Source of the DNA: Enterobacter phage vB_Ent31
Reading direction: 5' to 3' (one strand)
Sequence record: OR567511.1
DNA length: 64,000 nucleotides
Part shown: positions 37,023 through 39,888 of the stretch, in pieces
Layout of the letters: each line of letters begins with the position of its first letter
Position numbering within the stretch: the first letter of the stretch is position 1
Program-made: the position numbers and the translations under genes
The notes under the pieces: model-generated
What the model saw: the letters and a program-made list of their open reading frames with translations, nothing else
Databases searched by the model: none
What the model was told of the DNA's origin: nothing

Positions 37023-37541
37023 GTTCACTTCTGTGAAAATTGTTTGAGGAACGTACTCGGTTTTGGCAGTTGCAATCATCTTCATAATGATAGCTTTACC
37101 TTCAATGTTTTTACGCAAGAACGACTTGCACGCATCATGAGCTTCTTCGGACGTCATAAGAATAGCTATGGAACGCTCGTCCCCTACTTGGTCCAGATTC
37201 AACCAAACGTTTTCTTTCTTAGTCTGGCCTAAAGCTACATACATCACTTCAACGGTCTTTTCTTCAACCTCAACCAGGAAATTTCTGACTTCAGTGCCGG
37301 TGAACCAAGGACATGAATCACCATTCATACCGTCAATTTCAGCACCTTTTGGGCTTATCCAGCTTTCATTTTCAAATCGGATAAGACCTACAGAACCACT
37401 TGCAATAGCTTCGCCTTTTGCAATGTAAAAAGACTTATCACCGATATACTCAGCAATAAGCTGATTCACTCTCTGATTACAGCCTTCGGTGGATTTTAAA
37501 AAGCCTTCTTTTTCTAAGCGGTACAGAACATCACTTTTCAT
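37020..37541 (-). CDS. hypothetical protein (173 aa)
   Basis: ORF. A hairpin lies upstream of it. Confidence 0.5.
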   Translation of the reverse strand: MKSDVLYRLEKEGFLKSTEGCNQRVNQLIAEYIGDKSFYIAKGEAIASGSVGLIRFENESWISPKGAEIDGMNGDSCPWFTGTEVRNFLVEVEEKTVEVMYVALGQTKKENVWLNLDQVGDERSIAILMTSEEAHDACKSFLRKNIEGKAIIMKMIATAKTEYVPQTIFTEVN

Positions 37542-37565
37542 AGTTTCCTCATAAGGCCCGAAGGC

Positions 37566-37940
37566 CTAGAACATTTTACGTTCGGTCCAGTTATCAAGAT
37601 TAACTGTACCAGTTTTCTTCATTTTTTCAATCAAGTTATCTGCACGAGTGCGTCCATTTTCATACCACACTACATCTTCAGAATAACCATCTTCGTCTTC
37701 ATAAGTTTCAGAACGAATATGACCATGAATGCTTGTTTTCAAAACGTATTCAGTGCCGGTGAACCAATTAGTCAGAATAATGTACCAGCAGAAATCAGTA
37801 GATGGACCTTCAGGAGTCATGCAGTGAACTACATCTCCTTGCCATGAAGACAGATGCCACATTGGCTCTTCTACTTCAATTGCTTTATATCCGTCATGGT
37901 CTTTCGTTTTGATTTTAGCGTTCAGATTAATTGTGTTCAT
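37566..37940 (-). CDS. hypothetical protein (124 aa)
   Basis: Start is reassigned to MNTINL at 37940 with ACGGAGAA upstream. Confidence 0.5.
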   Translation of the reverse strand: MNTINLNAKIKTKDHDGYKAIEVEEPMWHLSSWQGDVVHCMTPEGPSTDFCWYIILTNWFTGTEYVLKTSIHGHIRSETYEDEDGYSEDVVWYENGRTRADNLIEKMKKTGTVNLDNWTERKMF

Positions 37941-37974
37941 TTTATTCTCCGTTACCATATTGGTTATTGAGATT

Positions 37975-38012
37975 CTATCATAACACAACTTTTGGCAGAT
38001 GTAAACGGTTAG
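37975..38012 (-). promoter_or_regulatory. conserved early-type promoter cassette
   Basis: Plus strand reads TCTATCATAACACAAC...GATGTAAACGGTTAG. Confidence 0.4.
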
Positions 38013-38212
38013 AGTTTTTCGCAACTATGGTATTCAGCATCTGCCCAAATGCCGAATGCCGGTAATGATTCTAGCATTGAGTTTCCAACTTCAATTGGGT
38101 CTTCCCATGGCCAAAGTGTAGCAATCTTTTCATAGAAAAAGATTGAATCCATATGTGAATATTCTGCTGGGTATTCTGATGTAACTTTGAAAATAAATTT
38201 ACGTTTAAACAT
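38009..38212 (-). CDS. hypothetical protein (67 aa)
   Basis: Start is reassigned to MFKRKF at 38212 with AGAGG upstream. Confidence 0.45.
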   Translation of the reverse strand: MFKRKFIFKVTSEYPAEYSHMDSIFFYEKIATLWPWEDPIEVGNSMLESLPAFGIWADAEYHSCEKL

Positions 38213-38234
38213 ATGAACCTCTGGATACAAAAAA

Positions 38235-38254
38235 GGGACTCCCGAAGGAGTCCC
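38235..38254 (-). terminator. GGGACTCCCGAAGGAGTCCC hairpin
   Basis: 8-bp stem. Confidence 0.45.
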
Positions 38255-38265
38255 GAACTTATGCT

Positions 38266-38445
38266 TTATGCTTTCTTACGTGGATTACCAAATGCAGCAT
38301 CATGAGCAATAACTTTGCGAGCGCGAGATGCTAGCTGGTCAGCCAATGGATTAATACGAGAGTTAGACCCACGCTTGTAGCCAGCGCGTTTAGAGGTACC
38401 AACAACTTCTTTTACTGCAGTTTTTGCTTTAGTTTGTTTAGCCAT
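38266..38445 (-). CDS. small highly basic protein (59 aa)
   Basis: Start is reassigned to MAKQTKAKTAVKEV at 38445. Lys/Arg-rich. Confidence 0.4.
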   Translation of the reverse strand: MAKQTKAKTAVKEVVGTSKRAGYKRGSNSRINPLADQLASRARKVIAHDAAFGNPRKKA

Positions 38446-38762
38446 TTTTAGTCTTCCATTTTGGAGAAATACATGGGAGCACGTTCTTCCGAGTTTCAAC
38501 TTCTTTCGACAGTTCTTTCGGTTGTAGCTCCCGCAAGCCCTCAAAGGGTACTTTGTGAGTTTTGTATATTTAACGTTCCGGTTCTCACAACCTTAACTAC
38601 ATACGCTCTTATCTGTTGCACACCGTTAGCTTTAAGGGTCCGGGTCTGATTACTCAGGGATAAGATATACACTGATGGATGTATAGGCCTTGAGGCGTAC
38701 TCCCGATTAGCCATCACCTCGGGGTAGCATGCACTTGCCGCTTAACTTGCCTTACGGCAACA
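38446..38762 (-). ncRNA. candidate structured non-coding RNA or leader (about 315 nt, GC-enriched, hairpin-dense, no convincing ORF)
   Basis: Paired segments include GGGAGC 38463-68 with GCTCCC 38515-20, and CCC/GGG at 38526-36. Further pairs are GTGAG 38543-47 with CTCAC 38572-76, and CCTTAA 38579-84 with TTAAGG 38630-35. Also TATACA 38654-59 with TGTATA 38668-73, CCCGA 38690-94 with TCGGG 38707-11, and TTGCCG 38723-28 with CGGCAA 38744-49. Confidence 0.3.
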
Positions 38763-39014
38763 TTACTTCAAGGTCACTACGAAATGACGAACCGCTTTAC
38801 GAGCTGCTGAACACAGAGGTTTAGCAAACTTCAGCTCATCTTTCAGAGCAAGTACATCGCGGAGGTCTGCCTGAACAGGATTCAGATGTTTGAAACCTTT
38901 CAGAACTTCCAGTGCTTCGGCGTAAACGTCGATTGATGCACCGTAGTTATCGTGACCTGCATTCCAGGAGTTGCGCTGCAGATGCAGAGCGTGTTCAAGT
39001 TGTTTGTTCATTGA
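38763..39014 (-). CDS. rIII: rIII-like lysis-inhibition accessory protein
   Basis: About 84 aa from MSMNKQLEHALHLQRNSWNAGHDNYGASIDV...AVRHFVVTLK. Resembles T4 RIII (from memory). Position is immediately downstream of gene 31. Confidence 0.55.
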   Translation of the reverse strand, partial: SMNKQLEHALHLQRNSWNAGHDNYGASIDVYAEALEVLKGFKHLNPVQADLRDVLALKDELKFAKPLCSAARKAVRHFVVTLK

Positions 39015-39151
39015 CATTATGTCATTCCTCAAATGAGGTTAAAAATTTGATGCAGAGCCCAAACTCATTAAAGATGAGATGCATCGCTTAGAAGAAAACA
39101 TGTCATGTCCTTTTGGAGGTAGTTCTCATGTTCTTCACAATTTTATTTATA

Positions 39152-39499
39152 TCACCCGTAGATGCACGGAATTGACTTCCAATGACAAGTAACAAATTTC
39201 TGTGCAATTTCTTTTGGTTTTTTCATACCAGCAGCGACAAGCGGATGAGGTACATTACGAATCTGACCAGTTGGCAGCGGCACTAACATACCGACTTCGA
39301 AAATACCTTCAGGAACATCCGCACCGATTGAATAGATTTCACACATATCAGGGATTTGTCCGGTTTCTTGTTTGCCGATAACAATACCGCCAGAAGAAAC
39401 GATTTCATCACCTTGCTGAGGAGGTTCAGAAACCAAGATAACATGTTCGCCGATAGCTTTAATTGGTAAATCCATTGTTACACCTTGTTGTTTGAGCAT
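39152..39499 (-). CDS. 31: co-chaperonin gp31 (GroES analogue)
   Basis: 115 aa. ...[10 protein letters not shown]...[15 protein letters not shown] closely matches T4 gp31 (from memory). Confidence 0.9.
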
Positions 39500-39531
39500 G
39501 AAATAATATTATCATGCTCATATTTAAGCAA

Positions 39532-39888
39532 TTAACCTTTAACCTGAACCAGTTTCAGCAGATGCTCTACTTTAACACCATTTACTGAAACGATAGAATC
39601 TAGTTTGAATGAACGCCATGCGTGTTTTTCAGTGTCCCACACTGGAATAGCTTCAGTAGATTCTTTACGAGACACCTGAGAGCCAACGCTTTCAACCAAG
39701 TCACTTGGAATGATGTCATGGTCACGAGTACAACGCAGAGAACGGATAGTACCGTCTACTTTCTCAAATACTACTTGAGATTCGCCACGAGCCAGAATTG
39801 GTTTCAGAGTATCACGAATTTGTACTTTTTCAGCTTCAGTCAGTTTAGTTTTCTTAGTCATTTTCAACACCACAGTAGTTTTCAACAT
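39532..39888 (-). CDS. hypothetical protein (118 aa)
   Basis: ORF between cd and 31. Confidence 0.45.
   Translation of the reverse strand: MLKTTVVLKMTKKTKLTEAEKVQIRDTLKPILARGESQVVFEKVDGTIRSLRCTRDHDIIPSDLVESVGSQVSRKESTEAIPVWDTEKHAWRSFKLDSIVSVNGVKVEHLLKLVQVKG

Follow-up and report, generated by a model that had tools for sequence, protein, structure and literature searches.

What occupies the gap between the genes rIII and 30.9 in Enterobacter phage vB_Ent31, where no convincing coding frame can be seen? The interval in question (38446-38762) was examined within a 64,000-nucleotide stretch of this phage (sequence record OR567511.1), hereafter the window, and it does sit between rIII and the gene for a 59-aa homologue of T4 gp30.9, both on the minus strand. 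A sequence-only reading had proposed a single structured non-coding RNA of about 315 nucleotides (nt) at this site. We found that the gap is a plastic, co-oriented array of autonomously folding, covarying RNA modules on the sense strand, and that the largest of these modules, here called the core, represents a hitherto undescribed RNA family, which occurs only in T4-like phages of Enterobacterales. The earlier proposal was borne out in that a conserved minus-strand fold with heavy compensatory covariation is present; it did not hold for one RNA, as there are at least four autonomous modules, permuted in order and individually present or absent in relatives. That the modules are real, selected RNA structures appears to us close to certain.

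The core was characterized through alignments of 21 (A2) and 23 (A3) distinct copies from about ten genera. Its closing stem P1 opens into a perfect four-way junction of P1, P2, P4 and P5 with zero unpaired linker nt, and seven helices are formed in all. The first arm comprises P2 (GGC/GCC), a conserved internal loop (AAGUGCAU / CUCAAG) and then P3, the second is the P4 hairpin, and the third is P5, which branches into P6 and P7. Long unpaired stretches of the core are invariant, namely AAGUGCAUG, GGA(A/C)CC, GCUAACGG and GUGCAACAG, and the invariant unpaired positions amount to approximately 45 nt.

Folding of the core alignment with RNAalifold returned 42 pairs, 19 of which carry compensatory double changes. 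A fixed core structure of 47 pairs, with P1 extended into the non-homologous flanks, was also scored on A3 and compared with slid controls, in which the pairing partners were moved by 1-3 columns. The helices pair in 95.8% of 1080 cells, against 28-43% in the slid controls, and compensatory changes occur in 24 of the 47 pairs, against 5-10. None of 500 shuffles reached the observed values for pairing and compensation. It was noted that 68 cells hold G·U and 7 hold A·C (pairing of 95.8% in the sense and 90.2% in the antisense orientation), and from this asymmetry the core fold belongs to the gene-sense (minus) strand. Both general marks of a structured RNA, compensatory pairs and strand-specific G·U, are found in the core, and the search for covariation in homologous T4-like loci that had been suggested for this interval gave a positive answer. 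A covariance model built from A3 recovered one copy only in the 64-kb window, with a score of 171 bits (Table 1).

The core also has a defined tertiary contact. The apical loops of P3 and P4 form a 6-bp kissing helix that is Watson-Crick in 138 of 138 cells (17-80% pairing in slid controls), with compensatory changes in 3 of its 6 pairs (CG 14 / UA 9; GC 19 / AU 2 / UA 2; GC 21 / AU 2). The loop variants recorded were UGAUGG/CCAUCA, CGAUGG/CCAUCG, CUAUGG/CCAUAG and CAAUGA/UCAUUG, and the AUG within the P3 loop is invariant because of this contact. A column-pair scan of the core for further tertiary pairs returned nothing convincing beyond the kissing loop. As a separate observation, the invariant palindrome GCAUGC (38727-38732, in the P2/P3 internal loop) can pair with GUAUGU (38599-38604, at the start of the neighbouring pseudoknot module); the minimum-free-energy (MFE) fold of the single core sequence uses this GCAUGC–GUAUG pairing instead of P1, and the pairing is not kept in every arrangement of the modules.

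Folding energy gave a different picture from covariation. The MFE z-scores were -1.3 for the minus strand and +0.4 for the plus strand of the whole gap, -0.5 for the core, and -0.8 and -1.7 for two further modules, a 58-nt hairpin and the fold of a 5' hairpin. Judged from this one sequence, the stems have no more stability than chance would give, and the reality of the structure in the gap rests on covariation, not energy; the comparison with shuffled controls that had been proposed as a refutation would, taken alone, have wrongly rejected it. The serial inverted repeats reported previously are present, with 11 perfect pairs of at least 6 bp in the gap. Four of these (I1, I2, I3, I7) correspond to helices with covariation in relatives; the kissing-loop contact was first picked up as another, I8.

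No known RNA class accounts for the gap, in keeping with the sequence-only reading. Scanning of window positions 37500-39700 against Rfam 15 with cmscan, at E values up to 10, gave no match overlapping 38446-38762, eight related loci scanned with a limit of E = 1 yielded terminator-like chance matches only, and ARAGORN detected 0 tRNA or transfer-messenger RNA (tmRNA) genes in the whole window. The core is likewise confined with respect to host sequence: an exact 23-mer had 0 matches in 185,579 GTDB genomes, blastn against 72,556 plasmids gave two chance matches only, and blastn against 5,426 E. coli genomes gave none. Core scans of metagenomes and IMG/VR returned T4-like contigs only, besides two chance matches inside coding sequence (L026, L039). 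The other modules of the window had no plasmid or E. coli match, so no host origin was found for them.

Several candidate identities were tried and set aside. Homology of the core to T4 rnaC/rnaD was dropped after the sequences were read. Likenesses to E. coli tmRNA and to RNase P RNA (a shared 10-mer, GUGCAACAGA) are short matches of roughly chance size, and both models were without an Rfam hit; those to the sarcin-ricin loop and type I-F CRISPR repeats are short and roughly of chance size. Anti-Shine-Dalgarno pairing by GAGGUGAU is not conserved, relatives carrying GAGGCGAU or UAGGCUAU, and a RegB GGAG site in P3 is missing in Muldoon.

We assessed how the core is distributed among phages. 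Sequence from one part or another of the gap is found in approximately 800 phage records, and the core query matched 405 of them at one place each (406 places in all), always between rIII and 30.9. Every carrier is a T4-like phage, with hosts in Klebsiella, Escherichia, Shigella, Enterobacter, Yersinia and Citrobacter, and further hosts among Salmonella, Serratia, Erwinia, Edwardsiella and Kosakonia. Hits of the covariance model were all-or-none (16 of 45 sources), with no weak hits and no distant homologues. Two side observations came from contigs with rIII-like sequence: in L084 (IMGVR_UViG_650627004, 164 kb) a terminator-like hairpin comes directly after rIII and is succeeded by an unrelated gene, both 30.9 and the RNA array being absent, and in L087 and L088 (97-150-kb contigs) a partial rIII-like match stands beside apparent tRNA genes (T-arm-like sequences).

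Alignment of the gaps (A1; the window, Merlin of Moonvirus, KPV15 of Jiaodavirus, AV121 of Tequatrovirus, and T4) revealed blocks of very different history, among them a core block of ~140 nt that is >90% identical across genera. T4 and AV121 have near-identical flanks and are separated by a clean insertion/deletion of ~155 nt, which is the core missing from T4, with boundaries at the ends of the closing stem. The statement of the sequence-only reading that T4 has nothing comparable was therefore corrected: the T4 gap of 244 bp holds homologues of the pseudoknot and of a small hairpin, and only the core of ~150 nt is missing. In Tequatrovirus, Mosigvirus and Dhakavirus, a single site flanked by CUCUUGAAUGU and AUGAUGACG is empty in T4, is occupied by the core in AV121 and JS10, and elsewhere contains a second cassette. 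This cassette 2 is an unrelated hairpin of ~52 nt (…CACGCGUCAGAAAAAGGUUAUCUGUCUAAGUCGUG…) without a plasmid match, in which CAGA/UCUG becomes CAGC/GCUG in CC31; it was found in L058, L060, L064, L068, L069, L075 and CC31 (L053 ~1835-1880).

Conservation of the core is decoupled from that of its neighbours. Between genera, nucleotide identity of the core is 92-94%, against 75-85% for rIII, 73-78% for gene 31 and 76-85% for 30.9, whereas the window and COW86c of the same genus share only 88% in the core, with 96% in rIII and 99% in 30.9. Similarity of core sequences does not follow that of the flanking genes. Phage Pet-CM3-4 encodes an RIII protein identical to that of the window, yet has no core, and T4, CC31 and Pet-CM3-4 all keep rIII and 30.9 without it. 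The distance from the core to the 30.9 start varies from about 20 to about 200 nt, with the core on either side of the pseudoknot, and the element downstream of the core differs by genus (pseudoknot, small hairpin or 58-nt hairpin); some hairpin always adjoins the upstream side of the 30.9 start region. From these comparisons of sequence, the core is evidently an exchangeable accessory cassette under strong purifying selection.

The same gap in relatives contains a second kind of accessory unit, which resembles the ToxI antitoxin RNA of type III toxin-antitoxin systems. A KPV15 segment, GGTGATTTGCTACCAAAGTGCAGCTAGAAA, has matches, mostly more than one per plasmid, in 66 small plasmids from E. 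coli, Salmonella, Klebsiella, Yersinia, Pectobacterium and Serratia. The corresponding Jiaodavirus unit, GGUGAUUUGCUACC..AAGUGCAGCUAGAAA, lies directly 5' of the core and matches the 36-nt ToxI repeat array of E. coli plasmids. In KPV15 (L004 ~1466-1502) the pseudo-ToxI unit, GGUGAUUUGCUACC-AA-AGUGCAGCUAGAAA, has the pseudoknot module on one side and the 5' strand of core P1 on the other, and a single unit is also present in L005, L021, L027, L029-L034, L036, L040 and L042. On plasmid NZ_CP030113 (L049 1128-1327) the 36-nt × 5.6 tandem array AGGTGATTTGCTACCTTTAAGTGCAGCTAGAAATTC directly precedes a gene whose annotation reads 'type III toxin-antitoxin system ToxN/AbiQ family toxin'.

Other versions were encountered as well. 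Enterobacter phage CIP9 (L014) and Edwardsiella phage PEi20 (L028) carry GTGATACGCTACTAAAGTGCGAACTTGAAAA just upstream of the core, and their unit GUGAUACGCUACUAAAGUGCGAACUUGAAAA, a second host-matched mimic, matches a 37-nt × 3.9 array on Enterobacter cloacae plasmid OW849001 (L050 1425-1570) that sits upstream of 'Endoribonuclease ToxN'. The Mosigvirus-like L058 and L060 (~1756-1790) have a ToxI unit, AGGUGAUUCGCUACCUUAAGUGCGGCUAGAAAAUC, that is nearly intact and adjoins the rIII stop; it matches 80 toxIN plasmids, including the 5.6-kb Pectobacterium atrosepticum NC_011767. Degenerate ToxI copies occupy one and the same position in T4 (L003 ~1838-1870) and AV121 (L002 ~1838-1870), with further variants in L063 and L086; judged by sequence, T4 itself would carry a decayed antitoxin mimic, of which we found no report. 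In approximately 40% of core carriers a pseudo-ToxI unit immediately precedes the core. For phage ΦTE, experiments have established pseudo-ToxI encoded by the phage as a form of counter-defense (PMC3475682), and the known anti-toxIN factor of T4-like phages is the protein TifA (PMC10853763). By analogy, the ToxI copies in this gap suggest a role against host defenses.

Table 1. Features of the rIII–30.9 gap and of its surroundings in the window, with positions as numbered in the window.
Feature	Position	Strand	Remark
Core RNA	38597-38749 (core proper 38606-38740)	minus	covariance model and alignment
Core P3	38695-38728	minus	
Core P4	38666-38685	minus	
Core P5	38659-38665 with 38607-38613	minus	
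Core P6	38646-38657	minus	GNRA-type loop
Core P7	38620-38645	minus	
Core J7/5			GCAACA
Kissing partner 1, P3 apical loop	38711-38716	minus	UGAUGG
Kissing partner 2, P4 apical loop	38673-38678	minus	CCAUCA
5' hairpin	38747-38760	minus	UUGCC-GUAA-GGCAA (GNRA loop); directly after rIII stop; inverted repeat I11
H-type pseudoknot	38553-38604	minus	present in T4 too; inverted repeat I1
Pseudoknot S1	38591-38597 with 38575-38581	minus	
Pseudoknot S2	38584-38590 with 38553-38559	minus	7 bp, UUGUGAG/CUCACAA
Pseudoknot A-rich loop 3	38560-38574	minus	GUUAAAUAUACAAAA
Small hairpin	38532-38551	minus	GUACCC-UUUGA-GGGCUUGCG; invariant block in alignment A1
58-nt hairpin	38475-38532	minus	just upstream of 30.9 start region; inverted repeat I3
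Gene 31 co-chaperonin	39152-39499	minus	
rIII	38763-39032	minus	
rIII–30.9 gap (flagged interval)	38446-38762		neighbouring genes on minus strand
Gene 30.9	38266-38445	minus	59-aa T4 gp30.9 homologue
Putative translation-initiation region of 30.9	38446-38474	minus	AUGUAUUUCUCCAAAAUGGAAGACUAAAA then AUG
Intrinsic terminator after 30.9	38254-38235	minus	only terminator-like site near the gap

The remaining modules have histories of their own. In the pseudoknot, the two stems are joined by a conserved A-rich loop, GUUAAAUAUnCAAAA, and a 5' motif, GUAUG, is conserved. The outer 3 bp of S1 are paired in 17 of 17 phages through GUU/AAC, GAC/GUC, GUG/CAC, GUC/GAC and GGC/GCC, and the S2 duplex, which exists in several distinct complementary versions, is better than shuffled tails, by 2 kcal/mol or more, in 10 of these phages. 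The pseudoknot lies downstream of the core in the window, T4-type phages, EcS1, COW86c and Cronus, and upstream of it in Jiaodavirus, Muldoon and CIP9. The small hairpin is downstream of the core site in the window and T4 and upstream of the core in EcS1, COW86c and PS49; its covariation, judged by eye, is weak (GCC/GGC in Cronus; an extended stem in PS2).

The 58-nt hairpin (GGGAGC[UACA]ACCGA[AAG]AACU-G-UC[GAAA]GA-AGUU[GAAAC]UCGG[AAGAACGU]GCUCCC) has a GAAA (GNRA) tetraloop and two conserved internal loops (UACA / AAGAACGU), and a single copy is present in the window. Its variants, compared by eye, show compensatory changes in all three stems, those of T4 being GGUAGUC/GACUACC, CUGA/UCAG and AUCU/AGAU. 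It is located upstream of 30.9 in Karamvirus, Moonvirus and Jiaodavirus, and between 31 and rIII in T4-type phages (T4 L003 1489-1548), a gap that does not contain it in the window (39033-39151). This hairpin looks like a movable leader or operator module.

The 5' hairpin was seen only in the PG7 group and Kosakonia phage 305, which are too few for covariation testing. Its 5' arm UUGCCG (38755-38760) has two possible partners, the 3' arm of the hairpin and the CGGCAA of the core start (38735-38740), and GGCAAGU is duplicated 12 nt apart. This arrangement could reflect an alternative structure competing with P2, or a recombination scar.

With respect to its genomic context, the window is 99.6-99.9% identical over 901 bp to Enterobacter phages myPSH1140, PG7 and relatives, a group of T4-like phages in the genus Karamvirus, to which the window belongs. 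The gp30.9 product falls in a PHROG of unknown function and is without a Pfam family. The 30.9 initiation region is kept in Karamvirus, Moonvirus, Jiaodavirus, the Muldoon-related Serratia phage PS2 and others, and its position points to a role as the ribosome-binding site of 30.9. The gap was also described as visibly richer in G+C than its surroundings; this stands for most of the neighbourhood (0.445-0.485 vs ~0.36-0.40), with the exception of rIII, which is equally rich.

The intrinsic terminator after 30.9, which has homologues in T4 and Merlin, closes the cd–31–rIII–30.9 transcription unit. Within the gap no terminator and no sigma-70-type promoter was found by a scan that leaves out the T4 middle and late promoter types, and no hairpin of the gap carries a trailing U-tract. 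The promoter and Rho-independent terminator that a small RNA with its own gene would have are thus not seen there, and from the lack of internal signals the modules are most likely co-transcribed in the rIII–30.9 message, which is the simplest reading. Transcription of rIII in T4 is known to start at promoters of all three classes, early, middle and late (PMC9409239).

An intriguing question is what the core does. Several of its features fit a folded accessory RNA better than a leader: it has its own closing stem with a variable position and distance from 30.9, it is dispensable, as about half of related phages are without it, and it is exchanged horizontally. Similarly, the ~45 invariant unpaired nt on a rigid scaffold fit a protein-binding RNA better than a leader. 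The core would fold within the rIII–30.9 transcript, or be trimmed out of it, and would act in trans as RNA, perhaps as a compact, nuclease-resistant ligand for a protein. Its invariant unpaired nt would serve as the binding surface, while the helices and kissing loop would need only to keep the shape, and this matches the pattern of variation seen. Most likely, such a ligand would serve as a decoy or sponge, its target being a host factor that restricts infection in certain hosts.

The decoy proposal takes as its model the ToxI mimics that occur as single units in the array of relatives and match host plasmid toxIN loci, and these mimics make a counter-defense or host-range role our leading guess. 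Taken whole, decoy function included, we put forward the trans-acting accessory RNA tentatively and consider it somewhat more apt to fail than to hold, because the core resembles no host RNA. Several points weigh against it. The core is without a counterpart in plasmids, E. coli genomes or GTDB, so that, unlike pseudo-ToxI, it is no recognizable mimic of a host RNA. A degenerate ToxI pattern gave 0 matches in the window, and the link to anti-defense is one of association in relatives. No promoter or terminator of its own was found, which leaves room for a purely cis-acting role in the mRNA. Finally, with the core so highly conserved, independent covariation events are restricted in number, and the shuffle statistics ignore phylogeny. 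We also considered a bolder version, in which the core, copied from no host RNA, would found a new class of phage counter-defense RNAs, a high-affinity aptamer or sponge for a bacterial immune protein or immune signalling nucleotide, and the gap would be a dedicated and rapidly shuffled 'anti-defence RNA island' that also houses ToxI mimics and other RNA cassettes; this we regard as doubtful.

Pseudo-ToxI of Pectobacterium phage ΦTE is the closest precedent for a decoy, being a phage non-coding RNA in an accessory intergenic region that evolves by recombination and cassette exchange (PMC3475682), and ToxI-like units abut the core in relatives. However, the core is not a repeat of ~36 nt and has no similarity to ToxI, plasmid or host sequence; it is a 150-nt four-way junction, whereas ToxI is a small triplex pseudoknot, and the window is without a ToxI-like unit.

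The modules may instead be cis-acting elements of the mRNA, in the rIII 3' untranslated region or the 30.9 5' untranslated region, that govern how stable the message is or how it is processed (access of RNase E, RNase III or RegB), or that serve as a translational operator for gp30.9 or RIII. Their place inside a transcription unit without a promoter or terminator of their own agrees with this, as do the fact that one hairpin or another always stands just before the 30.9 start region and the T4 58-nt hairpin upstream of rIII instead, like a movable 5'-leader element. Pseudoknot operators are also known in T4, for example in gene 32 mRNA (PMC3014915), where an H-type pseudoknot in T4-type leader or intergenic RNA is followed by an A/U-rich stretch, as at 38553-38604. 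The two differ in sequence and locus, a binding protein is known only for the operator, and the pseudoknot of the gap precedes no fixed gene. For the core in particular, the shifting distance to 30.9 on either side of the pseudoknot and the retention of rIII and 30.9 in core-less T4, CC31 and Pet-CM3-4 speak against a cis role, and a four-way junction with a kissing loop and so many invariant unpaired nt far exceeds what a stability element needs. We therefore judge the cis-acting explanation unlikely, while granting it an appreciable share.

The core could also be a ligand-binding aptamer, either a riboswitch or a small-molecule sponge, for instance for a nucleotide second messenger. Purine and lysine riboswitch aptamers share its architecture of a multi-helix junction with adjacent arms held by a loop–loop contact, and a closing P1 and invariant junction and internal-loop nt are further features in common. 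The core differs from them in being four-way with a branched third arm, in occurring only in lytic phages, and in matching no Rfam riboswitch family even at E = 10. No conserved expression platform accompanies it, as the downstream neighbour and the distance to 30.9 vary, no metabolic gene is nearby, and a stoichiometric RNA sponge for a small molecule has no known precedent. An aptamer is, on this balance, improbable.

A self-cleaving ribozyme, or a signal for RNase-directed processing, that cuts the polycistronic RNA was also weighed and was considered distinctly improbable. Cleavage could, for example, release the adjacent pseudo-ToxI unit or split the rIII and 30.9 messages. A compact junction-based element with invariant unpaired nt would be in character, and where the core directly follows pseudo-ToxI that unit would need a defined 3' end; 2',3'-cyclic phosphate ends are left by ribozymes and likewise by ToxN processing of ToxI. 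However, no Rfam ribozyme family was matched, no cleavage site is suggested by the sequence, and many core carriers, the window included, are without pseudo-ToxI.

Very improbable, in turn, is a DNA-level element, such as a recombination or homing site, a replication origin or a promoter cluster, or else what is left of a degenerating intron or mobile element, without RNA function. The clean insertion/deletion alleles, the cassette exchange, the terminal inverted repeats of AV121 (CTTATAGC/GCTATAAG) and a GCTTG in the T4 small hairpin that by eye vaguely resembles a MotA box could be read in this manner. The G·U to A·C asymmetry shows selection on one strand as RNA, however, and compensatory changes keep pairing even in the long-range loop–loop helix; no homing-endonuclease gene or intron match was found, and the core is more conserved than the neighbouring genes. 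Arbiol et al. reportedly proposed in 2010 that mobile 'promoter-early stem-loops' drive modular shuffling in T4-type genomes. The gap is similar in having short intergenic stem-loop modules at differing positions that mark recombination boundaries, and the 58-nt hairpin behaves in this fashion; in contrast to those elements, which combine an early promoter with a simple stem-loop, the gap has no sigma-70-type promoter and the core is a complex tertiary fold.

The only open reading frames (ORFs) in the gap are a minus-strand frame of 57/58 aa and a plus-strand frame of 62 aa, and some GenBank records annotate proteins over the core. As an observation on these records, 1-4 overlapping 'hypothetical protein' coding sequences (CDSs) are automatically placed there, as in PP597396 (COW86c_228; L018 1195-1329), and many Klebsiella phage records likewise carry such CDSs, which are almost certainly spurious. 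A small protein gene or a run of terminator hairpins is hardly credible: the minus-strand frame from the same AUG yields 13-57 aa in 12 related phages, with frameshifts and early stops, the plus-strand ORF crosses modules whose permutation breaks it, neither frame nor product is conserved in homologous loci, no ORF has a usable Shine-Dalgarno spacing as read from the sequence or matches a Pfam or PHROG family, and the terminator hairpins raised earlier as a rival come down to the single site after 30.9, no hairpin of the gap being followed by a U-tract.

Among structured RNAs of T4 itself, the species 1 and 2 RNAs of the tRNA cluster, rnaC and rnaD, are the nearest in size, at ~120-140 nt, of unknown function and derived from a longer transcript (PMC3014915). 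The core has no sequence similarity to them and lies at another locus; rnaC ends in a tRNA-like T-arm, whereas the core is without tRNA features. In the literature searched, no description was found of the core RNA or of ToxI mimics in T4-like phages, the nearest reports being PMC5449768, PMC10853763 and PMC10690425; the last, a 2023 catalogue of viral RNA motifs, does not name T4-like phages, rIII or Klebsiella in its main text. Absent from Rfam 15 and from this literature, the core family is new, and in kind it is a phage accessory non-coding RNA.

Among lytic phages, those of the T4 type have been studied best, and a review from 2010 still stated that no riboswitch or trans-acting regulatory RNA had been characterized in them, and that the genomes of relatives might yield candidates (PMC3014915). 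The core is such a candidate, a covariation-supported RNA family with a defined tertiary contact, and it is carried by approximately 400 sequenced therapeutic and environmental phages, unannotated or mis-annotated in GenBank. Even if its function proves to be cis-regulatory, the family merits an Rfam entry and corrected annotation. It also offers the testable idea that T4-like phages may counter host defenses, or set their host range, by means of a non-coding RNA island, besides proteins such as TifA (PMC10853763).

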